In this document: in pieces, positions 1 to 17,796 of the stretch
Position numbering within the stretch: the first letter of the stretch is position 1
How the letters are laid out: each line of letters starts with the position of its first letter
IMG/VR virus record: IMGVR_UViG_3300010259_000013
Span: 1-18,662 of that record
DNA from: a virus
Taxonomy: Duplodnaviria > Heunggongvirae > Uroviricota > Caudoviricetes
Length of the DNA stretch: 18,662 nucleotides
Reading direction: 5' to 3' (one strand)
Translations under genes and position numbers: made by a program
Notes under the pieces: model-generated
What the model was told of the DNA's origin: nothing
What the model saw: the letters and a program-made list of their open reading frames with translations, nothing else
The model's database searches: none

Positions 1-33
1 AGCACGATGCCGTTACGTGAAAGGCATCGTGCT
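1..33. repeat. Perfect inverted repeat (arms AGCACGATGCC / GGCATCGTGCT, 11-nt loop) at the window edge; possibly a host-side stem-loop
   Basis: Seen directly in the sequence. No T-tract follows, and the upstream context is outside the window. Confidence 0.35.
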
Positions 34-96
34 ATGAAGGGAGATTCTATCGATGTGGTCAATGGAAGACGGTGACCAGGGATAGGGCTTATGCAT

Positions 97-123
97 AAAA
101 AATAAGCCCGTGTAAGGGAGATT
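97..123. other. Candidate P2-type attachment core at the int-proximal prophage-host junction
   Basis: AAAAAATAAGCCCGTGTAAGGGAGATT matches the 27-bp P2 att core as I recall it, and lies about 80 bp beyond the int stop. Recalled from memory, not searched. Confidence 0.55.
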
Positions 124-202
124 TAGGGTGTCACCAGTAGGGGCTTTCAACGGTACAATGCGGGTTTGAGCGGCATAAATTACCACTGAAAGCCCTTAAA
201 CG

Positions 203-1216
203 TTACTCTACTGTGGACACTGTGTGGACACTCTCGGCCTCAGTACCACCTCTTAGCGGATTAAGAGAAATGGCGTCCTGAAGGTACTCTGGCGCAAAAT
301 GAGCGTAAACCATAGTTTGCTCAATCCGCGTGTGGCCTAGTATCCGTTGTAGCGTGATAATACTTCCTCCATTAATCATGAAATGAGTGGCAAAGCTGTG
401 CCTTAGTGCATGTGTGGCTTGCCCCGTTGGCAAATCCGGTTTTATTGCTTTCATTGTTCGTCTGAAGCGAGGGTAATCAGCATCAGGGAATAAAAAACCT
501 CGTTTGTTATCCGCGATCATTTTGGCAACAGCCTCTGAGATCGGGACGGTGCGTGGTTTGTTTGTTTTCGTTTTAACAAACGTGACGCGGTTATGGATGA
601 TATTTTCTGCTTTCAAACGAGCTGCTTCTCCCCAACGTGCTCCAGTACTCAGGCAAAGAATCGCAATCTTTTTATTGTCGCCGTCAAGAGCAGCAAGCAG
701 TAAGGCAATTTCTTCCTGCGTGAGATAGCCTGTGTCTGGTTTTTCCTCCTTAAGCCTTTTTGTCCCTCTGATAGGGTGCTCACCAAAGAATAACTCCGCT
801 TCAATCAGGGCTGTAAACATGCCGCTAATACATGTTAAATCACGATTGATACTCGAAGGTTTAATACCCTGACTTCTTCGGGTGGCGCAGTACTGGCTGA
901 TAAGCGATTTCGTAATTTGAAATGCGCATGGGTCATTCGTTATTTTTGTGAAGATTTCAATTTTTCCAAGATTAGATTTCCCATGCTCTTCGTGTTTACC
1001 CTTTAAATCCCACCAGATCTGTGTCAGCTCCGACAGACGTCGCTTGTCTGTTGGTTTTGATAGCCATTCTTTATTGTGGTGGTTGTACAACGTGTATTTC
1101 TCGAAAGCGACAGCTTCGCTTTTCTTATCAAACTTCCTACGTATGCGTTTTCCATTACGTCCAGTAGGGCGGATGTCCACTTCATATCGACCATCATCGA
1201 GTTTTTTGATTGCCAT
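203..1216 (-). CDS. int: Tyrosine-recombinase integrase (P2 Int-like)
   Basis: 337-aa ORF with ATG at 1216-1214. Carries the C-terminal catalytic signature R...HxxR...Y (GARWGEAARL, HALRHSFATHF, HTRIEQTMVYAHF). Length and position next to att match P2 Int. Confidence 0.93.
   Translation of the reverse strand: MAIKKLDDGRYEVDIRPTGRNGKRIRRKFDKKSEAVAFEKYTLYNHHNKEWLSKPTDKRRLSELTQIWWDLKGKHEEHGKSNLGKIEIFTKITNDPCAFQITKSLISQYCATRRSQGIKPSSINRDLTCISGMFTALIEAELFFGEHPIRGTKRLKEEKPDTGYLTQEEIALLLAALDGDNKKIAILCLSTGARWGEAARLKAENIIHNRVTFVKTKTNKPRTVPISEAVAKMIADNKRGFLFPDADYPRFRRTMKAIKPDLPTGQATHALRHSFATHFMINGGSIITLQRILGHTRIEQTMVYAHFAPEYLQDAISLNPLRGGTEAESVHTVSTVE
213..231. promoter_or_regulatory. Two direct repeats TGTGGACA (213-220, 224-231); candidate Int arm-type binding sites
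   Basis: Direct repeat seen in sequence, overlapping the int 3' end next to the att core. P2 Int arm sites are direct repeats of this type, as I recall. Confidence 0.5.
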
Positions 1217-1331
1217 CAGAAAACCCTCCGAGTGGTGTGTTTTTTGGCGACTACTAATCGCTTTTTTCGTGGTGGCTGAAATTTAGCCACCAATAGTAGG
1301 CACTTGTGATGAATATATTCACGATGAATTG

Positions 1332-1631
1332 TTAACCAGTCTTTTGACCGGAGTGGGGCGACGTTGTTTCGTTTTGCCCAAAGTGTGCGAGAGCGGGCGC
1401 AATTTGCCCGGACTCAGGAGCGATCTGATTGGTCATGAACCATAAAGTGTATTTGGTGAATTGTGGGGTCTGCAGGATGTTCATCATGACATCTGTTGGA
1501 GGTGTTGAACGACCACTTTCATAGTAACTCAGCGTGCCATACGGAACCCCTGTTAAATCAGCAAGTTGTTGTCTGCTCAAATACTCTGATTTTCGCATTA
1601 AGACTATCTTCTCGCTTATCGTGTTTGACAT
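1332..1631 (-). CDS. C: Immunity repressor C (P2 C-like), helix-turn-helix
   Basis: 99-aa ORF, same length as P2 C. HTH-like segment QQLADLTGVPYGTLSYYE. Divergent from cox across an operator-bearing intergenic region. Confidence 0.9.
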   Translation of the reverse strand: MSNTISEKIVLMRKSEYLSRQQLADLTGVPYGTLSYYESGRSTPPTDVMMNILQTPQFTKYTLWFMTNQIAPESGQIAPALAHFGQNETTSPHSGQKTG

Positions 1632-1664
1632 GGTGTTTAGATCTCAATAGTATTTAGTTTAGAT
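1625..1664 (+). promoter_or_regulatory. Candidate early promoter Pe (-35 TTGACA 1625-1630, -10 TAGTAT 1648-1653) with two direct-repeat operator half-sites GTTTAGAT (1635-1642, 1657-1664)
   Basis: Hexamers have a 17-bp spacer. The two identical 8-mers are 22 bp centre-to-centre and flank the -10, which fits the P2 C-operator arrangement. Further (G/A)TTTAG copies sit at 1652 and 1672. Confidence 0.6.
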
Positions 1665-1698
1665 GTAGATTGTTTAGTGCTTGGATGTGGGCACTAAA

Positions 1699-1722
1699 AG
1701 GCATTATAAGGCATTAAACGCA
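1699..1722 (-). promoter_or_regulatory. Candidate Pc -10 (TATAAT on minus strand, complement of 1703-1708) and Cox-box-like TTAAACGCA (1714-1722)
   Basis: Perfect -10 hexamer in the right orientation for leftward transcription of C. No convincing -35. TTAAACGCA fits the Cox-box consensus TTAAA(G/C)NCA as I recall it. Confidence 0.4.
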
Positions 1723-1745
1723 ATTCATGAGGGCTGGAGGACGAC

Positions 1746-2021
1746 ATGAGCAAGCAAGTAACACTCATGACTGATGCGATTCCTTATCAGGAGTTCGCAA
1801 AACTAATAGGAAAATCGACAGGAGCGGTTCGTCGGATGATCGATAAAGGAAAGCTGCCTGTAATTGATATGACCGATCCACAATCAGCTTCAGGTCGTGC
1901 AGGTGAATATTGGGTATACCTTCCGGCATGGAATAACGGACTAAAACTGGCTTATGAAAGCCGCCCTAAAGAGATTCGTGACGGCTGGTTGATGTGGTTA
2001 GGTCTCGGTGAACCACGTTAA
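1746..2021 (+). CDS. cox: Cox (excisionase and Pc repressor), P2 Cox-like
   Basis: 91-aa ORF, same length as P2 Cox. ATG at 1746 preceded by GGAGGA. First gene of the early rightward operon opposite C. Confidence 0.9.
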   Translation: MSKQVTLMTDAIPYQEFAKLIGKSTGAVRRMIDKGKLPVIDMTDPQSASGRAGEYWVYLPAWNNGLKLAYESRPKEIRDGWLMWLGLGEPR

Positions 2022-2031
2022 GGAGAACCGT

Positions 2032-2202
2032 ATGAATGAGCCTCGTTGTATTGCTCAGTTACTGCGTAACGAAAGCTCCAGGGCGATTGACTTCACCATC
2101 ACCCACGGTAAGGGGCGTAAGGGAATCATTATCCGCACCAAAAAACAGAGTCCGTTAAAGAAGGCTCTGACCTTTCTGAAAAGCCGGAGGGTATGGAAAT
2201 GA
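2032..2202 (+). CDS. Small basic early protein of unknown function (P2 orf78 position)
   Basis: The ORF-track start at 2008 is GTG. The first ATG is 2032, with AAGGAG six nt upstream. Synteny between cox and B. Confidence 0.6.
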   Translation: MNEPRCIAQLLRNESSRAIDFTITHGKGRKGIIIRTKKQSPLKKALTFLKSRRVWK

Positions 2203-2699
2203 CAGTGATGACGCTCAATCTCGTTGAAAAACAGCCAGCAACTATGCGCCGGATAATTGGTAAGCATCTGGCTGTCCCTCGCTGGCAGGAGACATGCGAT
2301 TATTATAATCAGATGATGGAACGCGAACGGCTAACGGTTTGCTTTCATGCGCAGTTAAAACAGCGTCACGCAACGATGCGTTTTGAAGAAATGAACGACG
2401 TCGAACGTGAACGACTGGTATGTGCAATTGATGAATTGCGCGGGGCATTCTCAAAACGCCGTCAGGTTGGCGCAAGTGAGTATGCATATATTAGTTTTTT
2501 AACAGTCAGTCAGCGTCGCACTTTATTTATGCACGCACGACTGACAGAAAAAGAATTTAACCAGCCATACTGGCGAATTAATGAAGAGTCATGTTACTGG
2601 CGTGATGCTTTATTCCGTGCATTACGTGAATTATTCAGCCTGTTTGAGTATGCACCGACAATTCTGACGTCGGTAAAACCAGAGCAATATCTGCATTAA
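2199..2699 (+). CDS. B: Replication protein B (P2 B-like)
   Basis: ORF 2193-2699. Starting at the third Met (2199) gives 166 aa, equal to P2 B, with GGAGG eight nt upstream. Synteny. Confidence 0.85.
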   Translation: MTVMTLNLVEKQPATMRRIIGKHLAVPRWQETCDYYNQMMERERLTVCFHAQLKQRHATMRFEEMNDVERERLVCAIDELRGAFSKRRQVGASEYAYISFLTVSQRRTLFMHARLTEKEFNQPYWRINEESCYWRDALFRALRELFSLFEYAPTILTSVKPEQYLH

Positions 2700-2720
2700 G
2701 TAATTAACCAGAGTTTTTAA

Positions 2721-2748
2721 CGCACTTAATTGTGCGGGGCTTTTTTTT
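2721..2748 (+). terminator. Candidate intrinsic terminator or attenuator after B (stem CGCAC-TTAATT-GTGCG, then GGGC and a T8 run)
   Basis: Short hairpin followed by eight consecutive T at 2741-2748. The stem is weak; it may allow partial read-through into the downstream early genes. Confidence 0.45.
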
Positions 2749-2762
2749 GCCTGGAGAAAGTC

Positions 2763-2987
2763 ATGCATACAGTTTCTGAAAATCAGTGCGGTAAATACGC
2801 ATTACTGCTGCAACAGGCCAGAACCGAAGCACAGGCCGACGCGGCGACGCGCTTTTCTTCTCATCTTGACGCCATGATTCGCCACATCACAAAGGCGGAG
2901 TTATCCCGCGTGGAGATAGTCGAGCTGCTCAGTCAGGAGTCGGAAAAATTTCACAATATCGGATTGTCTCGCGGGGAGGTACTTTGA
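2763..2987 (+). CDS. Hypothetical early protein (P2 orf80-83 family position)
   Basis: The ORF-track start at 2730 is TTG. The first ATG is 2763, with GGAG six nt upstream. Its stop overlaps the next start (ATGA-type coupling). Confidence 0.6.
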
Positions 2988-3289
2988 TGTCCTGTTCTCA
3001 TTCAGTTGTATTACTGAATAACGCCTTAAAAATCGCCGTTATGAAAAATGGCGATTTGTCTCTTATTCAACTTTGTCTTGATAAAGAAAAACGCGACATA
3101 ACTGAATCTGTTATCGCGATTTATCAGAATGAATTAAACCTCCTGTCTGATGTGGTCAATTTACTTGTTAAACGCGCTGTATTCCACAAGCAAATTTCCT
3201 CAGTGGATGAACTGACACAATTAACGACAGAAATCGCCAGCTATTGCGCTGATGAATTTAAGAAACTGAACGACAAAAGGAGCTGGTAA
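2987..3289 (+). CDS. Hypothetical early protein
   Basis: ATG at 2987 overlaps the upstream TGA; the stop overlaps the next ATG (TAATG). Synteny with the P2 early operon. Confidence 0.6.
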   Translation: MSCSHSVVLLNNALKIAVMKNGDLSLIQLCLDKEKRDITESVIAIYQNELNLLSDVVNLLVKRAVFHKQISSVDELTQLTTEIASYCADEFKKLNDKRSW

Positions 3290-3513
3290 TGCCGGACAAC
3301 GTGGATTTTATTCAGGAACAACAGGCTGAATTACTGGAGCGCCAGATTAACGCGGCAAGGGTAAAACATTATGGTGCTTCTGCGCTGGTTTGCGAAGAGT
3401 GTGATGCGCCAATACCTGCTGCCCGTCGTGCGGCTTATCCGTCAGCCACGAGTTGTGTTTCCTGTCAGTCAGTCTTTGAAGCAAAAAACAAACATTACCG
3501 GAGAACGGCATGA
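3289..3513 (+). CDS. TraR/DksA-family C4 zinc-finger protein
   Basis: 74 aa with CEEC ... CVSC (CxxC-x16-CxxC). AAAGGAG lies upstream. Translationally coupled to its neighbours. Confidence 0.7.
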   Translation: MPDNVDFIQEQQAELLERQINAARVKHYGASALVCEECDAPIPAARRAAYPSATSCVSCQSVFEAKNKHYRRTA

Positions 3514-3785
3514 GTATTCGTATTGAAATTGGCGAACGTTATGTCGTTACCAGTGACAGCTTTCAGTTTATTCTCCACGAGAAAAAGAGAGCGGAAAGCG
3601 GTAAAAACGCCGGTCAGGAATGGCTGGCGGTGGTTGGTTATTACCCGAAATTAAGTCAGCTCGTTTCCGGCCTGATGCATCACGATATTCTGACCGGAAG
3701 CGCAAAATCTTTTGCCGATTTAAACGCGCAGGTTGAGCAACTCAGCAGGCGTTGTTCAGAGGCTTTTGGCTCATATGGCCGTTAA
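3510..3785 (+). CDS. Hypothetical early protein immediately upstream of A
   Basis: 91-aa ORF. Start overlaps the upstream stop (ATGA); the 3' end overlaps the A start. Confidence 0.6.
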   Translation: MSIRIEIGERYVVTSDSFQFILHEKKRAESGKNAGQEWLAVVGYYPKLSQLVSGLMHHDILTGSAKSFADLNAQVEQLSRRCSEAFGSYGR

Positions 3786-6060
3786 AGCCTCCGGGCGTTT
3801 TGTCCCTCCGTCAGCATTTGCTGCAGGCACCGGTAAGGCGTTTACCGGTGCTTATGCATGGAACGCGCCACGCGAGGCTGTCGGGCGCGAAAGACCCCTT
3901 ACACGTGACGAGATGCGTCAGGTGCAAGGTGTTTTATCCACGATTAACCGCCTGCCTTACTTTTTGCGCTCGCTGTTTACGTCACGCTATGACTACATCC
4001 GGCGCAATAAAAGCCCGGTGCACGGGTTTTATTTCCTCACATCCACTTTTCAGCGTCGTTTATGGCCGCGCATTGAGCGTGTGAATCAGCGCCATGAAAT
4101 GAACACCGACGCGTCGATGCTGTTTCTGGCTGAGCGTGACCACTATGCGCGCCTGCCGGGGATGAATGACAAGGAGCTGAAAAAGTTTGCCGCCCGTATC
4201 TCATCGCAGCTTTTCATGATGTATGAGGAACTCTGCGATGCATGGGTTGATGCACATGGCGAGAAAGAATCGCTGTTTACGGATGAGGCGCAGGCGCATC
4301 TGTATGGTCATGTTGCTGGCGCTGCACGTGCTTTCAATATTTCCCCGCTCTACTGGAAAAAATACCGTAAAGGACAGATGACCACGAGGCAGGCATATTC
4401 TGCCATTGCCCGTCTGTTTAACGATGAGTGGTGGACTCATCAGCTTAAAGGCCAGCGTATGCGCTGGCATGAGGCGTTACTGATTGCTGTCGGGGAGGTC
4501 AATAAAGACCGTTCTCCTTATGCCAGTAAACATGCCATTCGTGATGTGCGTGCACGCCGCCAGGCAAATCTGGAATTTCTTAAATCGTGTGACCTCGAAA
4601 ACAGGGAAACCGGCGAGCGCATCGACCTTATCAGTAAGGTGATGGGCAGTATTTCTAATCCTGAAATTCGCCGGATGGAGCTGATGAACACCATCGCCGG
4701 TATTGAGCGTTACGCCGCCGCAGAGGGTGATGTGGGGATGTTTATCACGCTGACCGCGCCGTCAAAGTATCACCCGACACGTCAGGTCGGAAAAGGCGAA
4801 AGTAAAACCGTCCAGCTAAATCACGGCTGGAATGATGAGGCATTTAATCCAAAGGATGCGCAGCGTTATCTCTGCCGTATCTGGAGCCTGATGCGCACGG
4901 CATTCAAGGATAATGATTTACAGGTCTACGGTTTGCGAGTCGTCGAGCCACACCACGACGGAACGCCGCACTGGCATATGATGCTTTTTTGTAATCCACG
5001 CCAGCGTAACCAGATTATCGAAATCATGCGTCGCTATGCGCTCAAAGAGGATGGTGACGAAAGAGGAGCCGCGCGAAACCGTTTTCAGGCAAAACACCTT
5101 AACCGGGGCGGTGCTGCGGGATATATCGCGAAATACATCTCAAAAAACATCGATGGCTATGCACTGGATGGTCAGCTCGATAACGATACCGGCAGGCCGC
5201 TGAAAGACACCGCAGCGGCTGTTACCGCATGGGCGTCAACGTGGCGCATCCCGCAATTTAAAACGGTTGGCCTGCCGACAATGGGGGCTTACCGTGAACT
5301 ACGCAAATTGCCTCGCGGCGTCAGCATTGCTGATGAGTTTGACGAGCGCGTCGAGGCTGCACGCGCCGCCGCAGACAGTGGTGATTTTGCGTTGTATATC
5401 AGCGCGCAGGGCGGGGCAAATGTCCCGCGCGATTGTCAGACTGTCAGGGTCGCCCGTAGCCCGTCGGATGAAGTTAACGAGTACGAGGAAGAAGTCGAGA
5501 GAGTGGTCGGCATTTACGCGCCGCATCTCGGCGCGCGTCATATTCATATCACCAGAACGACGGACTGGCGCATTGTGCCGAAAGTTCCGGTCGTTGAGCC
5601 TTTGACTTTAAAAAGCGGCATCGCCGCGCCTCGGAGTCCTGTCAATAACTGTGGAAAACTCACCGGTGGTGATACTTCGTTACCGGCTCCCACACCTTCA
5701 GAGCACGCCGCAGCAGTGCTTAATCTGGTTGATGACGGTGTTATCGAATGGAATGACCAGGAGGTCGTGAAGGCGCTAAGGGGCGCATTAAAACACGGAC
5801 TGAGAACACCAAATCGTCAGCAAAGAGCCGGAAGCCCGTTAAAACCGCATGAAATAGCGCCATCGGCCAGAATGACCCGGTCGGAACGAATGCAAATTAC
5901 CCGTATCCGCGTTGACCTTGCTCAGAACGGTATCAGGCCGCAGCGATGGGTGCTTGAGGCGCTGGCGCGTGGCGCGACCGTAAATTATGACGGGAAAAAA
6001 TTCACGTATCCGGTCGCTGATGAGTGGCCGGGATTCTCAACAGTAATGGAGTGGAAATGA
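3775..6060 (+). CDS. A: Replication initiation protein A, rolling-circle HUH endonuclease (P2 A-like)
   Basis: ORF 3733-6060. Starting at ATG 3775 (MAVKASGRF...) gives 761 aa, matching P2 A. HUH-type motif PHWHMMLF and paired tyrosines YIAKYISK. In P2 the ori lies inside this gene; I could not place it from sequence. Confidence 0.92.
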   Translation: MAVKASGRFVPPSAFAAGTGKAFTGAYAWNAPREAVGRERPLTRDEMRQVQGVLSTINRLPYFLRSLFTSRYDYIRRNKSPVHGFYFLTSTFQRRLWPRIERVNQRHEMNTDASMLFLAERDHYARLPGMNDKELKKFAARISSQLFMMYEELCDAWVDAHGEKESLFTDEAQAHLYGHVAGAARAFNISPLYWKKYRKGQMTTRQAYSAIARLFNDEWWTHQLKGQRMRWHEALLIAVGEVNKDRSPYASKHAIRDVRARRQANLEFLKSCDLENRETGERIDLISKVMGSISNPEIRRMELMNTIAGIERYAAAEGDVGMFITLTAPSKYHPTRQVGKGESKTVQLNHGWNDEAFNPKDAQRYLCRIWSLMRTAFKDNDLQVYGLRVVEPHHDGTPHWHMMLFCNPRQRNQIIEIMRRYALKEDGDERGAARNRFQAKHLNRGGAAGYIAKYISKNIDGYALDGQLDNDTGRPLKDTAAAVTAWASTWRIPQFKTVGLPTMGAYRELRKLPRGVSIADEFDERVEAARAAADSGDFALYISAQGGANVPRDCQTVRVARSPSDEVNEYEEEVERVVGIYAPHLGARHIHITRTTDWRIVPKVPVVEPLTLKSGIAAPRSPVNNCGKLTGGDTSLPAPTPSEHAAAVLNLVDDGVIEWNDQEVVKALRGALKHGLRTPNRQQRAGSPLKPHEIAPSARMTRSERMQITRIRVDLAQNGIRPQRWVLEALARGATVNYDGKKFTYPVADEWPGFSTVMEWK

Positions 6061-6512
6061 TGGCAAAAATTCACGAGGTAAAGCTGCACGCAAAATATTT
6101 TGACCTTGTGCTGGAAGGAAAGAAACGCGCAGAGTTTCGGAAAAATGACCGTAATTATGAGCGCGGGGACACGTTGATTTTGCATGAATGGGTGCAGGGT
6201 GTGTTTACGGGGCGAAAGGTTGAAGCCCGGATAACAGATGTTACTGACCTGTCAGACTGGCTGGAAGATTATGTCTTGCTAAGTATTGAGCTGCTTAATA
6301 CGGGCGCATATAAGATTGTGAACTGGAAAGAACTTAGTGAGCGTGGCCTGGTATTCAGAATTAATCATGAAATTATGCATCAGCTCGGCCTTGCTGTTAT
6401 GTATGAACCAGAGACGGGGATGTCTGGCGGGGCAATGGTTGCCACGGATGGAGTATGGATCTATTCAGATGAACAGATGGAGCGTGCACAGCAAAACGGG
6501 TGGCTCGGATAA
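6057..6512 (+). CDS. DUF3850/ASCH-like protein
   Basis: Tandem ATGs at 6057 and 6060 overlap the A stop. The N-terminal segment IHEVKLHAKYFDLVLEGKKRAEFRKNDRNYERGDTL resembles the DUF3850 signature. Confidence 0.65.
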   Translation: MMAKIHEVKLHAKYFDLVLEGKKRAEFRKNDRNYERGDTLILHEWVQGVFTGRKVEARITDVTDLSDWLEDYVLLSIELLNTGAYKIVNWKELSERGLVFRINHEIMHQLGLAVMYEPETGMSGGAMVATDGVWIYSDEQMERAQQNGWLG

Positions 6513-6566
6513 TGCACAGAATACCAGGCGAGATACCGCACCATAAAAACTAAAAATATCAAGCTG

Positions 6567-6725
6567 ATGGCCATTGTTCACCGTCTACAGCAGATTATGG
6601 TCAACGAAAATCTGACGCCCGATGAACTAGTCGGGTGTGCCGAAATAGTCCGGGATAATTACGGGCGACTTAACTATATCGGTATCGGTCAGTCCAGAGT
6701 TGCGCCACCACCACGCAGACGATAG
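6567..6725 (+). CDS. Possible small ORF (52 aa), weak
   Basis: ATG at 6567 to TAG at 6723-6725; the stop sits five bp before palindromic element copy 1. No clear Shine-Dalgarno. Below the ORF-track size cutoff. Confidence 0.2.
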   Translation: MAIVHRLQQIMVNENLTPDELVGCAEIVRDNYGRLNYIGIGQSRVAPPPRRR

Positions 6726-6729
6726 AGAA

Positions 6730-6796
6730 CGCCGCCAGTCGTGAAACTTGTTTTCAGGGCTGGCGGCGTTGAACAACGAGCGAAGCGAGGCGTTAG
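6730..6796. repeat. Palindromic element copy 1: ~17-bp imperfect hairpin (CGCCGCCAG...CTGGCGGCG) plus conserved 28-bp tail ending GAGGCGTTAG
   Basis: Seen in sequence. Stem 6730-6768 with inner arm TGAAAC/GTTTTCA. About 80% identical to copy 2 over ~67 bp. Confidence 0.8.
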
Positions 6797-6954
6797 TTGA
6801 CAGTCATATTTTTACTGCGTTGGTGCTGGTTTTTGACGGTTGAAAGGAGTTAGCCCGGAGAGCAAAAGCCAACAACTTACAAATATTCAAAAGTAAGCTT
6901 CCTGTTGCTAACATAAGGTCGATTTTTTATGTGGATGATGCAAAAAGGATAGCT

Positions 6955-7686
6955 ATGGATATTGTAATCGCTTTTCTATCACTCGCTTTTTTCGTTGCTT
7001 TTTTCATCGGGTTAATCAAGCCATCACTGGTGCGGATGCCAAACCGTAAACGTGCAAGTGCGGTTTATCTCGGAGGTAGTTTTGCATTGAGCATAATTGG
7101 TTCAATACTCTACCCAACAGAAAAAAGCCAGCCAGTTGCTAAAACTGAAACAGCAACCGTAGCAGAACACCAGGCTCAAAAAACATTCGAATATACTGAA
7201 AAAACACTCAAGGAATATCGGAACGAGCCAAAGAAGACTCGACACGATATTGTGAATAGTTACATTAACTTTAAGAAAGTGCCAGTCACCGCATCAGATG
7301 CATTTTATGCCTGCATGAGTGAGTATACATTTACCAAAGATGATGAGTTGAAACTCGGTGATGTTCTTGGGTGGTGCTTTAATGATTATGAAAATGACCC
7401 GAATTCATTAAACAATAAAATCAATCTTGATACATTTCAGAGTAATTTTAGTGGTTGGGATGGTTCTTATCGGCCATTGGAAAAATTAATTAAAGATAAT
7501 ATGAACGATGATTCATCTTATAAACATGTGTCAACGGTATATCATTTGGTTTTGAATAAAGACCCGCACGCCATTGTGAAAACCACGTTTCGCGGCACTA
7601 ATGCTTATGGTGGAGTGGTAAAGCAGACCGTAGCGGCGCGCGTCAACGTGCGAACGGGGGAGGTCGATTCGATACTCGACAATTAA
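6955..7686 (+). CDS. Membrane-anchored cargo protein 1 (two predicted N-terminal TM helices, ~180-aa soluble C-terminal domain), unknown function
   Basis: The ORF-track start at 6931 is GTG. The first ATG is 6955, with AAAGGA five nt upstream. Hydrophobic stretches IVIAFLSLAFFVAFFIGLI and AVYLGGSFALSIIGSILY. AT-rich codon usage unlike the backbone. Confidence 0.7.
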   Translation: MDIVIAFLSLAFFVAFFIGLIKPSLVRMPNRKRASAVYLGGSFALSIIGSILYPTEKSQPVAKTETATVAEHQAQKTFEYTEKTLKEYRNEPKKTRHDIVNSYINFKKVPVTASDAFYACMSEYTFTKDDELKLGDVLGWCFNDYENDPNSLNNKINLDTFQSNFSGWDGSYRPLEKLIKDNMNDDSSYKHVSTVYHLVLNKDPHAIVKTTFRGTNAYGGVVKQTVAARVNVRTGEVDSILDN

Positions 7687-7702
7687 ACAATATAGTGACA
7701 TA

Positions 7703-7769
7703 CCCCGCCAGTACTGAAACTTGTTTTCAGTGCTGGCGGGGTTAAACAAAGAGCATCGTGAGGCGTTAG
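7703..7769. repeat. Palindromic element copy 2: near-perfect 39-bp palindrome (CCCCGCCAGTACTGAAAC-ttg-GTTTTCAGTGCTGGCGGGG) plus conserved tail ending GAGGCGTTAG
   Basis: Seen in sequence. 17-bp stem with one G-T wobble. Sits 16 bp after the stop of cargo protein 1 and 25 bp before the start of cargo protein 2. Confidence 0.8.
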
Positions 7770-7794
7770 ATTAAAATCATTTGAGGCAGATAAA

Positions 7795-8457
7795 ATGCTT
7801 TGGAAAATAATTTCTTTTTTATTAGTTGGTATTTGTATGTTTGCTTTCGGTTTATGGTTAGGCTCTATTCAGGCTGAATGGGCGAAACCAGAGCATAAAG
7901 ATGCTGTTGCTTATTTAGCAATGATCGGAGGATGGGTCTCAGGAATTGCAACGTCAGTCGCAGTAATTATTTCATTGTATGCGACATACCAAGCATCACA
8001 GAATAATGTTGAAAAATTAAGTTTAACCTATAAGCCTTACTCTAGCGTAGACAAAGAAAATTATTGTGCCAATATTGAGGTTGTAAATTTGCGGAGCGTT
8101 CCGGTACATATACAAGAGTTTTGCTTAGAATTTAGTGGGATAAATAATCATTTCAACATAAACGAACTAAAAGCAAATGGGAAGGAGATCCCGTATTCTT
8201 TATACCAAGTAGGAGAGAAATGGGAGTTTGCCTTCTATCCTTTTGCAAAGCCGGGAAATATGAGGTTCTATAAAAGCTTAAGTGAGAATGGTAATCCAAG
8301 TTTTCGTAGTGGTTTCTTTGTGGTTAAAACATCAATGAAACAATACAAATTAAGGATGCCTAATGAGCTTTTGGAAATTATGAAAATTAGCTATGAAAAG
8401 CAAATGGAAATACGGAAGAATTATAAGGAAATGCATGGTAAAGAGATGGGCTTTTAA
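7795..8457 (+). CDS. Membrane-anchored cargo protein 2 (two predicted N-terminal TM helices, ~150-aa soluble C-terminal domain), unknown function
   Basis: ATG at 7795 with GAGG eight nt upstream. Hydrophobic stretches IISFLLVGICMFAFGLWLG and AVAYLAMIGGWVSGIATSVAVIISLYA. AT-rich. Confidence 0.7.
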   Translation: MLWKIISFLLVGICMFAFGLWLGSIQAEWAKPEHKDAVAYLAMIGGWVSGIATSVAVIISLYATYQASQNNVEKLSLTYKPYSSVDKENYCANIEVVNLRSVPVHIQEFCLEFSGINNHFNINELKANGKEIPYSLYQVGEKWEFAFYPFAKPGNMRFYKSLSENGNPSFRSGFFVVKTSMKQYKLRMPNELLEIMKISYEKQMEIRKNYKEMHGKEMGF

Positions 8458-8580
8458 AACGCATTAACAAGCATCAAATTGCATGCGCATCCCTCCCCTG
8501 TTGTGTTTGAGCGCTGCCAGTGATGGTGTGCCTCTGGCGTGTTCGTGCAACTGCATTAAAACCGCCCCATGAAGCGGGCG

Positions 8581-8599
8581 GGCGAGGCGGGGAAAGCAT
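8581..8599. other. cos cohesive-end site (P2/186 type)
   Basis: GGCGAGGCGGGGAAAGCAT matches the 19-nt P2/186 cohesive end as I recall it (the P2 last base may be C). It sits in a GC-rich, backbone-like block upstream of the Q/P packaging genes. Confidence 0.7.
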
Positions 8600-8676
8600 T
8601 GCGCTGGACCTAGAGGCTTTGCTATCTTATTTGATGTTATTGGTATTTATTCAATTGAATGACCGTAGAGGATGAA

Positions 8677-9273
8677 ATGTGTCACATTGAAATTTTTCGG
8701 GAAGCACTAACAGTAAAGGATCCTATATATATATACAGGAAGTATCTTTTAGGGCATGACGTGTGGTATTTTAGAAATAAATTGGGAAAATTAAATTATG
8801 CAGAGGTTTATGATGATCTTAAGATACTTATGTCAGAAAGATTAGGTGTTCACATTAATAATGTTGCTATTGTTGGAAGTGCGAAGTTAGGATTTAGCAT
8901 AACACCCACAGAAGATAAAGCCTTTAGAGAGTTTAACGAAGATAGTGATATTGATATTGTTGTCGTATCCCCTGAGCTTTTTAGAAAGTCTTGGGATGCA
9001 TATCTTGATGTGGCAAAAAGACAAAGAATACCTTATTACTATAAAATCACAAGCAATATATTTAGAAAGTTTGTATCCTTAAAGAATATTGATTATAATA
9101 ATGAATTCTTTCGAGATTGGAAAAACAAAATAGAACCTTGTCAAAAAGATTTGCAGGTTATATATGAAGTACCGAACGAGATTAACTATAGAATATATGA
9201 GTCTTGGGAGGATGTGGAACGCTATCATGTTCAAGGCTTAGAAAAACTTAAAAACTTAATGGGGCAAATTTAA
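8677..9273 (+). CDS. Putative minimal nucleotidyltransferase (Pol-beta-superfamily-like) cargo protein
   Basis: ORF 8659-9273. The better start is ATG 8677 (AGAGGA upstream), giving 198 aa. Candidate NTase motif hhGS...DxD: VAIVGSAKLG (8875-8892) and DSDIDIVVV (8941-8958), with a longer-than-usual insert between. AT-rich. Stop is one nt before the next ATG. Confidence 0.55.
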   Translation: MCHIEIFREALTVKDPIYIYRKYLLGHDVWYFRNKLGKLNYAEVYDDLKILMSERLGVHINNVAIVGSAKLGFSITPTEDKAFREFNEDSDIDIVVVSPELFRKSWDAYLDVAKRQRIPYYYKITSNIFRKFVSLKNIDYNNEFFRDWKNKIEPCQKDLQVIYEVPNEINYRIYESWEDVERYHVQGLEKLKNLMGQI

Positions 9274-9274
9274 A

Positions 9275-10336
9275 ATGAGTATTGTGAGAAACGTTAAAGT
9301 TGAAAGCAGAGATATAAAGTGGGTATCTGATAATTTTAAGTCAGGCGAGTTGGTTATTGATAATTCATTTCAAAGGCGATATGTTTGGGTTAAAAAAGAT
9401 AAAGTATCGTTAATTGAATCAATACTCCTCGGTTATCCTATTCCTGAAGTTTATCTGTGGCAAAATAAGACCGATCCTGAAACAGGGCAGAGAATTCATT
9501 CTATTGTTGATGGGCAGCAACGATTAGGTGCGGTTTTTGATTTTGTAACAGATAAGTTTGCATTAGAAAAACGTTATCTAGAATATAAGGATTCTGATTT
9601 TTCTGGAAAAAAATTTTCTGAATTAGATACAGAACAAAAAGCTGTTATCTGGGGATATGATTTTTCAATTCGATTTATTAATAATGATATAACTATTGAT
9701 GACATTAAAAATTTATTTCTTCGTCTTAATAGAACTAATATAACTCTTAACCCTCAAGAGTTAAGGAATGCGGAATTTAATGGTGAGTTTATTAAATTGG
9801 CGAGCTCTTTGTCGGAACATCAATTTTGGACAGAGTTCAAGGTGTTCAACTCATCTGACTTGAGACGAATGCTTGATATCCAGTTTATTAGTACTATGTT
9901 AATATTTATTAGAATGGGTATTGCTGAAGAAACATCCCAGGCGGCTATTAACAAAGTTTATGATCAATATAATGAAACGTATCCAGAGGCTGAACAAGAT
10001 AAAGAGTTGTTCATGGATTTGCTAAATCTGCTTGCTAATATGATAAGGGGTAAGCAATCTCTTGAATATATTGCAAAAAGAAAAACACACCTCTATACAT
10101 TATTTACATTGTCTTTTTACTTATTTAAAACTGGTATTGATTCTGATAGTGGGTACCAAAATGTAGCTGTAAAATTGGATGAGTGGTTTAATAATTATAT
10201 AAATGAGGTGGATTTTGATGATGAGATGGTTAACGTTTTATTAAATGAATATCGTACGCTTTCCCAAGAAGGCGTGCAGAAAAAGCAAAATAGGCAACGG
10301 AGACTGGATATTTTGAAGGGTTATATAACCATGTAA
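9275..10336 (+). CDS. DUF262 / ParB-like (GmrS-like NTPase fold) protein lacking a recognisable DUF1524/HNH nuclease domain
   Basis: 353 aa. N-terminal FQRRYVW and the hallmark DGQQR motif (9508-9522) of the DUF262 family. No His-Me/HNH motif seen in the C-terminal ~150 aa. Translationally coupled to the upstream NTase-like gene. Confidence 0.75.
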   Translation: MSIVRNVKVESRDIKWVSDNFKSGELVIDNSFQRRYVWVKKDKVSLIESILLGYPIPEVYLWQNKTDPETGQRIHSIVDGQQRLGAVFDFVTDKFALEKRYLEYKDSDFSGKKFSELDTEQKAVIWGYDFSIRFINNDITIDDIKNLFLRLNRTNITLNPQELRNAEFNGEFIKLASSLSEHQFWTEFKVFNSSDLRRMLDIQFISTMLIFIRMGIAEETSQAAINKVYDQYNETYPEAEQDKELFMDLLNLLANMIRGKQSLEYIAKRKTHLYTLFTLSFYLFKTGIDSDSGYQNVAVKLDEWFNNYINEVDFDDEMVNVLLNEYRTLSQEGVQKKQNRQRRLDILKGYITM

Positions 10337-10340
10337 TTAT

Positions 10341-10367
10341 CCCCCCCCCCTAGTATTTAGGAGGGGG
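10341..10367. repeat. C10 homopolymer (10341-10350) facing a GGAGGGGG run (10360-10367); potential C/G stem-loop just 3' of the DUF262 gene
   Basis: Seen in sequence, four bp after the DUF262 stop. Could form a GC stem with an A/T-rich loop. No T-tract follows. Confidence 0.5.
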
Positions 10368-10445
10368 CATGGCTTATTGGCTAAAGTTTTTCAGGTTTAT
10401 TTATTGAACTTGAGAATATACTTATAATTAAACAAGAGGATTATG

Positions 10446-10469
10446 AATAAAAAGCCGCCCGCAGGCGGC
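10446..10469 (-). terminator. Intrinsic terminator for the leftward Q-P late operon
   Basis: On the minus strand: stem GCCGCC-tgcg-GGCGGC (plus 10454-10469) followed by TTTTTATT (plus 10446-10453), five bp after the Q stop. Confidence 0.7.
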
Positions 10470-10474
10470 GATGT

Positions 10475-11509
10475 TCAGCCGTTGTCAGTGTCCAGTGAGT
10501 AGTTTTTAAATCGGATGACCTCCTGACCGAGCCAGCCGTTTATCTCGCGGATCCTGTCCTGTAACGGGATAAGCTCATTGCGGACAAAGACCTTTGCCAC
10601 TTTCTCAATATCACCCAGCGACCCGACGTTCTCCGGCTTGCCACCCATCAACTGAAAGGGGATGCGGTGTGCGTCCAGCAGGTCAGCGGCGCTGGCTTTT
10701 TTGATATTAAAAAAATCGTCCTTCGTTGCCACTTCACTGAGGGGGATAATTTTAATGCCGTCGGCTTTCCCCTGCGGGGCATAGAGAAACAGATTTTTAA
10801 AGTTATTGCGGCCTTTCGACTTAACCATGTTTTCGCGGAGCATTTCGATATCGTTGCGATCCTGCACGGCATCAGTGACGTACATGATATATCCGGCATG
10901 CGCGCCGTTTTCGTAATACTTGCGGCGGAACAGCGTGGCTGATTCATTCAGCCAGGCAGAGTTAAGGGCGCTGAGATATTCCGGCAGACCGTACAGCTCC
11001 TGATTAATATCCGGCTCCAGCAGGTGAAACACGGAGCCGGGCGCGAAAGGTGTCGGCTCGTTGAAGGACGGCACCCACCAGTAAACATCCTCCTCCACGC
11101 CACGGCGGGTATATTTTGCCGGTGAGGTTTCCAGTCTGATGACCTTACCGGTGGTGCTGTAACGCTTTTCCAGAAACGCATTACCGAATACCAGAAAATC
11201 CAGCACAAAGCGGCTGAAATCCTGCTGAGAAAGCCACGGGTGTGGGATAAACGTTGAGGCCAGAATATTACGTTTGACGTAAATCGGTGAGCTGTGATGC
11301 ACGGCAGCACGCAGGCTTTTTGCCAGACCGGTAAAGCTGACCGGTGGCTCATACCATCTGCCGTTACTGATGCACTCGACGTAATCCAGAATGTCACGGC
11401 GGTCGAGTACCGGCACCGGCTCACCAAAGGTGAATGCCTCCATTTTCGGGGCGCTGGCGGTCATTTTTTTTGCCGCAGGTTGCGGTGTTTTCCCTTTTTT
11501 CTTGCTCAT
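10475..11509 (-). CDS. Q: Portal protein (P2 Q-like)
   Basis: 344-aa ORF, same length as P2 Q. Its ATG overlaps the P stop (ATGA). Synteny Q-P divergent from O-N-M-L. Confidence 0.92.
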   Translation of the reverse strand: MSKKKGKTPQPAAKKMTASAPKMEAFTFGEPVPVLDRRDILDYVECISNGRWYEPPVSFTGLAKSLRAAVHHSSPIYVKRNILASTFIPHPWLSQQDFSRFVLDFLVFGNAFLEKRYSTTGKVIRLETSPAKYTRRGVEEDVYWWVPSFNEPTPFAPGSVFHLLEPDINQELYGLPEYLSALNSAWLNESATLFRRKYYENGAHAGYIMYVTDAVQDRNDIEMLRENMVKSKGRNNFKNLFLYAPQGKADGIKIIPLSEVATKDDFFNIKKASAADLLDAHRIPFQLMGGKPENVGSLGDIEKVAKVFVRNELIPLQDRIREINGWLGQEVIRFKNYSLDTDNG

Positions 11510-13281
11510 CAGTAAAACTCCAGAATGGTGGATGTCAGCGGGGTGCTGATACCGGCGGTGAGTGGCTCATTTAACAGGGCGTGCATGGTCGCCCAGGCGA
11601 GGTCGGCGTGGCTGGCTTCCTCGCTACGGCTGGCCTCATAGGTGGCGCTGCGTCCGCTGCTGGTCATGGTCTTGCGGATAGCCATAAACGAGCTGGTGAT
11701 GTCGGTGGCGCTGACGTCATATTCCAGACAGCCACGGCGGATGACGTCTTTTGCCTTGAGCACCATTGCGGTTTTCATTTCCGGCGTGTAGCGGATATCG
11801 CGCGCGGCGGGATAGAACGAGCGCACGAGCTGGAACACGCCGACACCGAGGCCGGTGGCATCAATTCCGATGTATTCGACGTTGTATTTTTCGGTGAGTT
11901 TGCGGATGGATTCCGCCTGAGTGGCAAAGTCCATGCCTTTCCACTGGTGACGCTCAAGTATTCTGAATTTACCTCCGGCCACCACCGGCGGTGCCAGCAC
12001 CACGCATCCGGCGCTGTCGCCACGGTGTGACGGGTCGTAACCAATCCATACCGGGCGGGAGCCGAACGGATTGGCGGCAAACGGCGCATAGTCTTCCCAT
12101 TCTTCCAGCGTGTCGACCATGCAGCGTTGCAGCTCCTCGAACGGGAACACCGACGCCTTGTCGTCAACAAATTCACACATGAACAGGTTTTTAAAATCGT
12201 CGGCGCTGTTTTCACGTTTGAGCTGCTCAATGTCGAACAGCGTGCAGCCACCTTTCAGGGCGTCCTCAATGGTGACAATCTGCCGCCACTGGCCGTCCGC
12301 ACAGAGAAGCCCCCCGGCAAGGGCGTTATGACTGACGTCGATTTCCACGCGTTCGGCGGCGCTGGCGCGTCCCCGGTTGAACAGTTCACCCGACCAGAAT
12401 GGGTAGGCGTCGTGCGCCAGCGTGGACGGGGTGGAGAAATAGGTCGAGCGCAGGTGGCTCTGTGAGGCCATACCTGATGCCACCTTACGCAGTACCTGAA
12501 AATTCGGGATCCAGAAAATCTCGTCGACGTACAGGTCGCCGTTATGGCTCTGTGCGGTGTTGGAGTTGGTGCCGAGAAAAATCAGTTTTGCGCCGTTATT
12601 GCCCAGGACAATCGGGTCACCGGTCAGGTCAACGTCAACCAGCCGGGCAAAGGCGATGATGTATTCGCGGAACACATACGCCTGCGTTTTACTGGCCGAC
12701 AGAAAAATCTGGTTATGACCGGTTTTCAGGGCGCGCAGCAGCGCCTCGCGGGAAAAATAAAACGTCGCGCCAATCTGGCGGGATTTCAGGATATCGCGGA
12801 TGCGGTGCTCAAGCCCGGCGCGATACCAGTGCAACTGATAGTCGAAAGACTGCTCAAAGAAAATCTGCTCCAGCTTTTCGATGGCCTCGTCACTGAAAAA
12901 ATTCTTTTTCGGTTTGCGCCGCCCGCCTTTGTTGCGGTTAGCGACGTTCGGATTAAGGTCTGCCTCGTTGCCGGTCTGGCTGTAGCGGTTGACCCGTGCC
13001 AGTCGTTCAATCTGGCGTCCCAGCAGGTCAATTTCCTTGAAGTCACTGCCGGTTTTCTGCGGTTTGATGATGAGCTGGGTCAGCCGCGCTTCCAGGCTCA
13101 TTTCCACACGGCTGATGGGGGCAACACTGTCCCAGCCGTCGCGCTGTTTCCAGCTCTGCACCGTCGGGCGTTTCATCTGCAACATGGCGGCAATCTGCGG
13201 CACGGAAAACCCCTGCCAGTACAGCAGCGCCGCCTGACGACGCGGGTCGTGTAAAAGAGTGGTGTCTGTGGTGATGGTCAT
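11509..13281 (-). CDS. P: Terminase large (ATPase) subunit (P2 P-like)
   Basis: The ORF-track start at 13311 is TTG. The first ATG is 13281 (MTITTDTTLL...), giving 590 aa, matching P2 P. Confidence 0.92.
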   Translation of the reverse strand: MTITTDTTLLHDPRRQAALLYWQGFSVPQIAAMLQMKRPTVQSWKQRDGWDSVAPISRVEMSLEARLTQLIIKPQKTGSDFKEIDLLGRQIERLARVNRYSQTGNEADLNPNVANRNKGGRRKPKKNFFSDEAIEKLEQIFFEQSFDYQLHWYRAGLEHRIRDILKSRQIGATFYFSREALLRALKTGHNQIFLSASKTQAYVFREYIIAFARLVDVDLTGDPIVLGNNGAKLIFLGTNSNTAQSHNGDLYVDEIFWIPNFQVLRKVASGMASQSHLRSTYFSTPSTLAHDAYPFWSGELFNRGRASAAERVEIDVSHNALAGGLLCADGQWRQIVTIEDALKGGCTLFDIEQLKRENSADDFKNLFMCEFVDDKASVFPFEELQRCMVDTLEEWEDYAPFAANPFGSRPVWIGYDPSHRGDSAGCVVLAPPVVAGGKFRILERHQWKGMDFATQAESIRKLTEKYNVEYIGIDATGLGVGVFQLVRSFYPAARDIRYTPEMKTAMVLKAKDVIRRGCLEYDVSATDITSSFMAIRKTMTSSGRSATYEASRSEEASHADLAWATMHALLNEPLTAGISTPLTSTILEFY

Positions 13282-13454
13282 GAATACCTCGCCGTGATGA
13301 ATACACGGCAAGGCTACTGAGTCGCGCCCCGCGATTCGCTAAGGTGCTGTTGTGTCAGTGATAAGCCATCCGGGACTGATGGCGGAGGATGCGCATCGTC
13401 GGGAAACTGATGCCGACATGTGACTCCTCTAATCACTATTCAGGACTCCTGACA
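13282..13454. promoter_or_regulatory. Divergent late-promoter region (PP leftward, PO rightward), presumably Ogr-activated
   Basis: 173-bp intergenic region between divergent P and O. One partial Ogr-like TGT-N12-CCA element at 13351-13368. Hexamers could not be assigned confidently. Confidence 0.45.
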
Positions 13455-14309
13455 ATGGCAAAAAAAGTCTCAAAATTCTTTCGTATCGGCGTTGAGGGTG
13501 ACACCTGTGACGGGCGTGTCATCAGTGCGCAGGATATTCAGGAAATGGCCGAAACCTTTGACCCGCGAGTCTATGGTTGCCGCATTAACCTGGAACATCT
13601 ACGCGGCATTTTGCCTGACGGTATTTTTAAGCGTTATGGCGATGTGGCCGAACTGAAGGCCGAAAAGATTGACGATGATTCGGCGCTGAAAGGCAAATGG
13701 GCGCTGTTTGCGAAAATCACCCCGACCGATGACCTTATCGCGATGAACAAGGCCGCGCAGAAGGTCTACACCTCAATGGAAATTCAGCCGAACTTTGCCA
13801 ATACCGGCAAATGTTATCTGGTGGGGCTGGCCGTCACCGATGACCCGGCAAGCCTCGGCACGGAATACCTGGAATTCTGCCGCACGGCAAAACACAACCC
13901 CCTGAACCGCTTCAAATTAAGCCCTGAAAACCTGATTTCAGTGGCAACGCCTGTTGAGCTGGAATTTGAAGACCTGCCTGAAACCGTGTTCACCGCCCTG
14001 ACCGAAAAGGTGAAATCCATTTTTGGCCGCAAACAGGCCAGCGATGACGCCCGTCTGAATGATGTGCATGAAGCGGTGACCGCTGTTGCTGAACATGTGC
14101 AGGAAAAACTGAGCGCCACTGAGCAGCGCCTCGCTGAGATGGAAACCGCCTTTTCCGCACTTAAGCAGGATGTGACTGACAGGGCGGATGAAACCAGCCA
14201 GGCATTCACCCGCCTGAAAAACAGTCTTGACCACACCGAAAGTCTGACCCAGCAGCGCCGCAGCAAGGCCACCGGTGGTGGCGGTGACGCCCTGATGACG
14301 AACTGCTGA
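13455..14309 (+). CDS. O: Capsid scaffolding protein (P2 O-like)
   Basis: ORF 13389-14309. ATG at 13455 (MAKKVSKFF...) gives 284 aa, matching P2 O. Confidence 0.9.
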   Translation: MAKKVSKFFRIGVEGDTCDGRVISAQDIQEMAETFDPRVYGCRINLEHLRGILPDGIFKRYGDVAELKAEKIDDDSALKGKWALFAKITPTDDLIAMNKAAQKVYTSMEIQPNFANTGKCYLVGLAVTDDPASLGTEYLEFCRTAKHNPLNRFKLSPENLISVATPVELEFEDLPETVFTALTEKVKSIFGRKQASDDARLNDVHEAVTAVAEHVQEKLSATEQRLAEMETAFSALKQDVTDRADETSQAFTRLKNSLDHTESLTQQRRSKATGGGGDALMTNC

Positions 14310-14367
14310 CCGGCGTCAGTCAGTCCGGGAAAACCTTCACGATTAACCCTTAATTTCAGGAAAAACT

Positions 14368-15441: not shown

Positions 15442-15444
15442 CCG

Positions 15445-16188: not shown

Positions 16189-16287
16189 CAACCGAATGCG
16201 CCCCGCGCCAGGGCGGCACGCCGGTCAGTGAGGGTGAATCACCTGACACTGCACCGGCGTCCACCGCCCGACTTTTCAGAGGTAGTC

Positions 16288-17000: not shown

Positions 17001-17003
17001 CGC

Positions 17004-17782: not shown

Positions 17783-17796
17783 ACGGAGTAAACACC

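Follow-up and report, generated by a model that had tools for sequence, protein, structure and literature searches.

Several kinds of short structured sequence have been described that resemble the element reported here. REP/BIME sequences, such as the malE-malF hairpins, are GC-rich imperfect palindromes without a U-tract that lie near stop codons in 3' untranslated regions (3'-UTRs) or between cistrons; they act through sense-strand RNA structure and can serve as recombination substrates. The RNase III sites of T7 and the sib site of lambda are conserved phage elements of ~60-70 nt that are placed between or after genes and are read through, and their hairpins decide the fate of the upstream mRNA. 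In lambdoid mosaic phages, short conserved boundary or linker sequences stand between exchangeable modules, and homology starts and stops at them. The region between gpA and the portal gene of P2-like phages is a hotspot of anti-phage defence genes, for which 1,650 gene arrangements were found in E. coli (Rousset et al., 2022, PMC9122126), and the mechanism of exchange there is given as unknown both in that study and in a survey from 2026 (PMC13586616), which covered thousands of P2/P4 elements. Both studies are made at the level of genes and neither mentions a hairpin, repeat or terminator. Here, a 69-nt element is described which occurs twice downstream of gpA in a P2-like prophage, within an 18,662-nt stretch of DNA that is referred to as the window (IMG/VR record IMGVR_UViG_3300010259_000013, positions 1 to 18,662).

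On comparative evidence, the element is well defined, conserved and structured and had not been catalogued before; its evolutionary role is clear, and a molecular one is proposed. It appears to be the junction at which phage modules reassort, and as such the left border of the variable cargo and of the cos-proximal defence hotspot. In its working it is most like the REP-type or T7/lambda-type mRNA hairpins and in its evolution most like the mosaic boundary sequences, but it is a member of none of these groups. REP/BIME sequences are dispersed, with hundreds of chromosomal intergenic copies, whereas the element belongs to one P2/186 prophage locus and occupies no more than two places per E. coli genome; it differs further in its length of 69 nt, its second hairpin, its near-invariant tail and its strict polarity relative to the phage backbone. 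Its sequence is presumably also unrelated to the REP consensus. Like the T7 RNase III sites and lambda sib it may be intercistronic, as is the second window copy, and by the annotation of phage 186 it would be read through there, but it has no sequence similarity to them. T7 RNase III sites typically have an internal-loop architecture, whereas the first hairpin of the element (H1) appears as a nearly continuous 19-bp helix. In contrast to the lambdoid boundary sequences the element is itself structured, covarying and strand-specific, which implies a function beyond homology. Searches of Rfam 15 returned best hits of 8-20 bits against gathering scores of 38-93, all to implausible families, and full-text searches with the element sequence found nothing relevant, although Nilsson et al. 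(2004) and Odegrip et al. (2006) may have noted a stem-loop. The element would be a new motif of structured RNA (or single-stranded DNA), and a well-supported one, absent from Rfam and unannotated in GenBank records including that of phage 186; its absence from the model phage P2 may explain why it was overlooked.

A first-pass annotation, made from the letters of the window alone, had pointed to two palindromic copies, ~80% alike and 973 bp apart, each lying just 3' of the stop codon of an open reading frame (ORF) and each built on a GC-rich stem of ~17 bp, and the copies proved to be real. The longest direct repeat of the window joins 6729-6807 to 7702-7780, with 81% identity over 79 nt and a spacing of 973. 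Comparison with other phages refined the limits of the copies to 69 nt each, 6728-6796 for copy 1 (E1) and 7701-7769 for copy 2 (E2), both on the + strand. The stems measure 18-19 bp: H1 of E1 consists of arms 6728-6746 and 6752-6770 (19 nt, 89% complementary) around a 5-nt loop at 6747-6751 (CTTGT), and H1 of E2 of arms 7702-7719 and 7725-7742 (18 nt, 94%) around a loop at 7720-7724. The second hairpin (H2) occupies 6772-6794 in E1, with outer pairs AAC/GTT, inner arms CGAGC/GCGAG and a GAA loop at 6782-6784; the corresponding region of E2, 7745-7767, is weaker (AGAGC/GTGAG). E1 terminates in ...GAGGCGTTAG, which is present exactly twice, at 6787-6796 and 7760-7769. The stop codon at 6725 sits 2 nt before E1 and that at 7686 sits 14-15 nt before E2. 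Folding of both copies, which the same annotation had proposed, gave strong sense-strand RNA hairpins of -38.8 kcal/mol (z = -5.6) for E1 and -35.8 kcal/mol (z = -5.9) for E2, with none of 200 shuffled sequences folding as well. The covariance model scored E1 at 95 bits on the + strand and 34.6 on the - strand, and E2 at 92.3 and 33.5 bits respectively.

The anatomy was derived from an ungapped alignment of 64 distinct copies (A1), which was enlarged by diverged copies found downstream of metagenomic Orf97 homologues. The length of 69 nt is taken from the conservation of columns 6-74, the entropy falling from 1.2 to 0.3 bits between columns 5 and 6 and rising from 0.0 to 1.6 bits between columns 74 and 75. 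H1 pairs columns 6-24 with columns 30-48 (19 bp) and 92.8% of its cells are paired in A1. With the diverged copies added, 92% of cells are paired, nine of the 19 pairs show changes on both sides, none of 500 shuffles matched the observed covariation on any of five measures, and the same helix was predicted independently by RNAalifold. A single unpaired base (G49) lies between the hairpins, giving the layout H1-G-H2-AG. In H2 the hypervariable columns 60-62 (1.6-1.8 bits, like the flanks) are held between near-fixed arms, CGAGC and GCGAG. Positions 56-57 are GA in 54 sequences and TC (UC) in 10, never mixed, and the arms are predicted to pair through either tandem G·A or two Watson-Crick pairs opposite GCGAG; outer AAC/GUU pairing closes the hairpin. 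The conservation of this part, which the first-pass annotation had called a tail, was borne out, but it is not a plain tail since it folds as the second, irregular hairpin. Its primary sequence, GUUGAACAAC...GGCGUUAG, is conserved even where the arms of H1 have been rewritten with compensation (loci L151, L138 and L027). Scans of IMG/VR with IUPAC 'non-consensus' patterns for loop and tail variants gave almost none, and two of their hits (L134 and L135) were unrelated coding sequence. H2 of E1 includes the sequence GCGAAGC (6780-6786), whose GAA loop is not conserved among copies.

Other folds and functions of the same bases were considered and set aside. The minimum-energy fold of the 186-type copies is a three-way junction in which 5' AACGCC pairs with 3' GGCGTT; this was rejected because the covariation of column 9 is with column 45 rather than column 69, and because the third helix needs the hypervariable triplet to be CCC. 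A pseudoknot between the loop of H1 (CUCGC/CUUGU) and the tail (GCGAG) has 97% of cells paired in A1, with three compensating cases. It is broken in diverged copies with a conserved tail, namely L141 (loop GTACC), L149 (loop deleted) and L129 (two mismatches), and H2, its competitor, is better supported by the hypervariable loop; the pseudoknot is retained as a weak and rather doubtful possibility. Coding potential was rejected, there being no conserved ORF across the element and the variation being paired and not three-periodic, as was a promoter in or at the element, for which the matches were weak and the TATAGT found immediately before E2 has no conserved counterpart in phage 186.

The structure is selected on one strand. 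Within the cells of H1, 145 G·T combinations, which pair on the sense strand only, stand against 7 A·C, which would pair on the antisense strand only. The sense hairpin is the more stable in all 64 unique copies (means of -28.7 and -18.9 kcal/mol), and sense copies score 75-102 bits with the covariance model, against 38 bits or less for their antisense images. The phage 186 copy has z-scores of -4.2 (sense) and +0.1 (antisense) when folded as RNA. Since G·U outnumbers A·C by 145 to 7 and only the sense strand folds, the data point to a single-stranded sense molecule as the selected form, either RNA or displaced single-stranded DNA (ssDNA), and not to a double-stranded protein site. By the same pairing bias a symmetric double-stranded operator or cruciform is, as far as the sequences can tell, excluded as the selected form. 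RNA is favoured because, of the 134 copies with an ORF upstream, 124 lie 1-13 nt past a stop codon in the same orientation; because it is rich in G·U, with three such pairs in four consecutive stem positions of the commonest variant; because the 186 copy is inside the mapped p95 transcript (186 record); and because 186 has the partial intrinsic terminator t95a after tum, exactly where PSP3 and others have the element.

The element is widespread. BLASTN with either window copy found it in 63-70 phage records, which include Wphi, 186, PSP3, a 'P2' variant and phages of Yersinia, Klebsiella, Salmonella and Erwinia, and in most of the phage records listed no feature is annotated under the match. 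A profile search, the loci of which are almost all IMG/VR contigs, gave at least 138 full-length copies in at least 124 loci, with at least 77 distinct sequences and at least 14 two-copy loci. Among 5,426 complete E. coli genomes, 507 (~9%) carry the element, in 530 places, with a median of one and a maximum of two per genome. A strict pattern also detected it in species-representative genomes of Citrobacter, Kluyvera, Erwinia, Scandinavium, Symbiopectobacterium and an Escherichia sp. All inspected copies from E. coli and from plasmids sit in P2-like prophages; independent plasmid occurrence was rejected, as those inspected among the 82 plasmid hits are such prophages, for example inside IncC plasmids. 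Orientation is invariant: all 147 copies with gpA in the locus lie on the gpA strand and downstream of gpA, and all 121 with the portal gene Q in the locus are oriented opposite to Q. In phage 186 the copy, at 30344-30412, is unannotated and falls between the orf97 stop and the terminator t95b (30436-30463). The sequence at 3280643-3280714 of NZ_CP082824.1 (E. coli SCAID URN1-2021) is 100% identical to E1, and this genome has two element places; it probably holds the window prophage or a very close relative.

Nor is the element tied to one gene, as it is preceded by at least eight unrelated gene families and followed by at least 26 unrelated sequence clusters, in mixed combinations. The commonest upstream family is orf37-like (69-80 amino acids, 61 of the at least 138 copies), then Orf97-like (243 amino acids, 44 copies), Tum/DinI-like (19), a 66-amino-acid protein (4), reverse transcriptase (3) and singletons of one copy each, among them gpA itself. 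Two-copy loci have one of two layouts, orf37-like|E|orf97|E with a spacing of ~970 nt, as in the window, or tum|E|orf37-like|E, the layout of PSP3, in which the copies stand ~405 nt apart (E is the element). The t95b/cos block of the 186 type is found past the element after four different upstream families. Between downstream clusters, the length shared after GTTAG is about that expected at random, with a few cases sharing 6-9 nt. The first-pass annotation had the copies punctuating cargo genes; they do follow genes, but these are semi-conserved accessory genes (orf37-like and the Orf97 homologue), and the truly variable cargo begins after E2 and is split by cos.

Pairwise homology was assessed by megablast of window positions 5800-8700. 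In Wphi, the P2 variant and YpM_46, homology to the window stops at 6796-6798, the end of E1, while phage 186 and its relatives are homologous over 6923-7769 and diverge after the last base of E2; the 186 homology begins 126 nt past E1 and not at its end. The suggestion that the copies are homology blocks for the exchange of cassettes has therefore good comparative support, homology between phages ending at the last base of the element. The tail tracks the downstream context, with an identity of 0.93 between copies that share the downstream but not the upstream sequence, against 0.86 for the reverse, which suggests that crossovers fall within the element or at its 5' side. Cargo can be inserted on either side, as reverse-transcriptase genes are found in both arrangements. 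In L123 such a gene (4514-5464) precedes the element (5539-5607) by 73 nt and has the same orientation; in L132 the gene (3628-5172) is downstream of the element (3482-3562) and runs towards it, with its end 66 nt away. Truncated or strongly diverged extra copies (L036 11356-11409, L046 678-731, L150 2242-2295, L010 1034-1114 and L027 1826-1906) sit a few hundred bases upstream of the full copy in related phages and look like decaying remnants of earlier junctions. With its last base coinciding with the divergence of phage genomes, the element is a concrete candidate for a second exchange site at the hotspot, and a 69-nt block common to otherwise unrelated modules makes the question of exchange there testable.

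The copies are not classical intrinsic terminators, as the first-pass annotation had already concluded. Directly 3' of the stems are GTTGAACAAC and GTTAAACAAA, without a U-tract, and the corresponding sequence is GUUGAACAAC or GUUAAACAAA in all 64 + 56 aligned copies, again without a U-tract. A terminator scan of the window made no call at E1 or E2. The 186 record places t95b, the terminator of the p95 transcript, 23 nt beyond the element, and E2 ends 25 nt before the ATG at 7795. For these reasons the element behaves as a 3'-UTR or intercistronic sequence that is read through. In most downstream contexts a canonical terminator is missing from the first 300 nt.

The interpretation put forward, to which we give about an even chance, is that the element is a read-through intercistronic or 3'-UTR RNA module of the sense strand, acting in stabilization or processing of mRNA and providing shared homology for the exchange of modules. 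It would be transcribed as part of the accessory genes of the early/SOS operon (tum, orf37-like, orf97 and occasionally others). The long H1 (19 bp) and then the small irregular H2 would fold in the transcript while RNA polymerase reads through; H1 would block 3'-to-5' exonucleases, and the sequence-conserved H2 and tail would be recognized or cleaved by a protein, such as a nuclease, through which the mature 3' end is set. A stabilizer of RNA 3' ends, one of the functions first suggested, would agree with the marked asymmetry between the strands. The mRNA of the upstream gene would in this way be stabilized or processed alike whatever sequence lies downstream, and homologous exchange at the element, the sole sequence common to otherwise unrelated modules, would join upstream modules to different cargo.

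Several points weigh against this interpretation. The exonuclease barrier and the processing site are steps that we infer, and a barrier by itself leaves the near-invariant tail unexplained. A canonical terminator within 23 nt in phage 186 would make a protective hairpin partly redundant. Neither profile nor covariance model found a copy in canonical P2 (NC_001895), where orf91 abuts tin, and P24A7b has orf97 with no second copy detected; on these two observations the element is dispensable. The 3' boundary is sharper, across many cargo types, than homologous exchange alone predicts, and RNA and displaced ssDNA are inseparable here by sequence.

In a rival reading, made in DNA, the element would fold on the sense strand displaced during rolling-circle replication by gpA and serve as a priming signal for the lagging strand or as a structure-specific site of breakage or recombination at which new cargo is joined, in the latter case comparable to attC or to the hairpin ends of HUH-type transposons. 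This reading is considered unlikely. We take gpA to nick the sense strand, in which case the displaced strand and the mRNA would share one polarity; the element is always downstream of the origin and gpA on the same strand, and its folding is strand-specific under DNA parameters too (z = -3.25 for the sense and -0.5 for the antisense strand of the 186 copy). The 26 unrelated downstream sequences begin at or within ~9 nt of GTTAG, which random illegitimate joining would not produce, truncated remnants are found in L036, L046 and L150, the GA-to-TC double change resembles a hairpin-templated (quasi-palindrome) correction, and the GCGAAGC of E1 is an unusually stable DNA mini-hairpin reported near the origins of single-stranded phages. 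A priming site would, however, hardly be present in 0, 1 or 2 copies after different genes, and P2 replicates well without the element. The gpA nick site at the origin (GCGCC/TCGGAG) is unlike the end of the element, no dedicated recombinase accompanies it, and no pair of sites encloses the orf97 unit in the manner of an integron cassette, the 186 homology starting only at 6923. The three G·T within four consecutive stem positions of the commonest variant also fit RNA better. The more specific proposal of a folded-ssDNA recombination signal, at which breaks or template switches at the foot of H2 (...GTTAG|) join cargo at a fixed nucleotide, appears quite improbable, and is kept alive because the 3' boundary is sharper than homologous exchange predicts. 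If it were true, phages of the P2/186 type would own an attC-like site for the capture of cassettes without an integron integrase, and such joining would explain the fast turnover of the cos-proximal defence hotspot.

An unconventional attenuator or terminator, whether factor-dependent (Rho- or Nus-assisted) or a pause site, could limit read-through from the early/SOS operon into cargo and cos. A stable GC-rich hairpin directly after stop codons, the presence of t95a at the equivalent position after tum in 186, and the scarcity of canonical terminators in the downstream contexts would all suit it. We nevertheless consider it very unlikely, as no copy has a U-tract, the 186 record ends the p95 transcript beyond the element, E2 closely precedes a cargo ORF that has a Shine-Dalgarno sequence but too little space in front of it for a promoter, and the tail is purine-rich and structured and not a C-rich, unstructured rut-like tract. 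That the element is a functionless leftover or 'boundary sequence', persisting since the recombinants that use its homology are those seen, would agree with its dispensability, its absence from P2 and its position at module junctions, which is the best established of its properties. Such a passive role is hard to credit when compensatory changes preserve H1 even in the diverged L151, L138 and L027 1826-1906, when the H2 loop varies freely while the arms stay fixed, and when the excess of G·T over A·C (145:7) is impossible without selection on one strand. A palindromic double-stranded operator for a dimeric phage or host protein is scarcely tenable. The inverted repeat of 18-19 bp, and the folding of both strands of the window copies, would favour it, and a protein-binding site was among the functions first suggested, but in the commonest (186-type) variant there are at least three differences between the half-sites and the antisense strand has no advantage in folding over shuffled sequence, and the variation preserves pairing and not the sequence of half-sites. 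A LexA box was likewise rejected, CTG-N11-CAG being one base longer than the consensus.

Three further systems share features with the element. Integron attC sites also consist of a structured 3' site behind a gene, fold in a strand-specific manner, start with ...AAC and end with GTT..., and have sharp boundaries in a locus of fast turnover. A single attC-type hairpin over the whole site was rejected, as H1 takes up only the 5' 43 nt and covariation contradicts pairing of columns 6-11 with 67-72; two-sided cassettes were rejected, as orf97 and the element in 186 have no upstream site. In contrast to attC the element contexts show no RRY pattern after GTTAG, and no IntI-like gene is annotated in the inspected right ends (~3-7 kb) of 186, PSP3 and P2. 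Hairpin ends of the HUH type (IS200/IS605, REP-RAYT, rolling-circle origins) were rejected, gpA being the only HUH protein and the nick region of the origin, GCGCCTCGGAGTCCTGTC, being unlike the end of the element. The put sites of HK022 consist of two stem-loops with one unpaired base over ~70 nt and are superficially like H1, G49 and H2 over 69 nt, but there is no sequence relation; a put-type antiterminator was rejected, given that the element is placed behind ORFs, at their 3' ends, and that the 186 copy is directly followed by a terminator which the 186 record gives as functional.

The setting in the window is P2-like, as first proposed: a Phage_GPA protein, a portal protein and cos were all found. 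Replication gene A, which encodes the rolling-circle nickase, lies at 3733-6060 on the + strand (Phage_GPA, E = 3e-124), the portal gene Q at 10475-11509 on the - strand, and an ORF of the size of an integrase near the end of the window, at 203-1216 on the - strand. The ORF after gene A (6024-6512) is a homologue of P2 Orf91 with DUF3850/ASCH and DUF7415 domains (phrog_986, a PHROG annotated as RNA-binding protein). A gene for a protein that may bind or modify RNA, two genes upstream of an RNA-like element, may be relevant, against which phage 186 has the element without an Orf91-type gene and P2 has the gene without the element. Directly upstream of E1, at 6512-6725 on the + strand, is a small ORF homologous to PSP3 orf37 and Wphi gp92 (phrog_11386). 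A fifth A in the run 6545-6549 (cataaaaac in the window, cataaaac in the P2 variant L002 and others) shifts its frame from that of its relatives, creates a stop at 6551-6553 and leaves an ORF of 52 amino acids from an internal ATG at 6567; this could reflect a pseudogene, a homopolymer sequencing error or a slippery run. The gene between E1 and E2, at 6955-7686 on the + strand (ATG 6955, alternative GTG start 6931), encodes a 243-amino-acid membrane protein homologous to Orf97 of phage 186 (phrog_3403, E = 5e-145), of which the 186 record states that its expression from a plasmid blocks infection by 186.

The first truly variable cargo ORF, at 7795-8457 on the + strand, encodes 220 amino acids of a family of unknown function (phrog_16957) and, from its position behind E2, is probably co-transcribed through E2. 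The cargo segment that starts after E2 has cos as its right border; the cohesive-end sequence, GGCGAGGCGGGGAAAGCAT, is at 8581-8599 on the + strand with one mismatch to P2 cosR. As cos falls inside the cargo region, the variable sequence is divided into two blocks, one on each side. To the right of cos are a nucleotidyltransferase-like gene (8659-9273, a weak PF01909 match) and a DUF262/GmrSD_N gene (9275-10336, matching PADLOC NsnA with E = 3e-40), which together form a candidate defence system.

Two short sequence matches within the element were also noted. The tail 8-mer GCGAGGCG (6785-6792 and 7758-7765) is present in cos at 8582-8589 (G-GCGAGGCG-GGGAAAGCAT). The cos of phage 186 has GCGTGGCG while the 186 element keeps GCGAGGCG, and kinship with cos was rejected, the match being probably due to chance. 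The right arm of H1 contains GCTGGCGG (6759-6766 and 7732-7739), one mismatch from Chi (GCTGGTGG) and oriented for an enzyme entering from cosR; a conserved Chi-like site was rejected, as column 39, which belongs to these eight bases, changes together with the base it pairs with. Finally, a run of ten C (10341-10350) lies directly past the stop codon of the DUF262 gene and is followed by GGAGGGGG (10360-10367), which is able to pair with it; the run could be a slippage- or error-prone site or part of a terminator-like hairpin.

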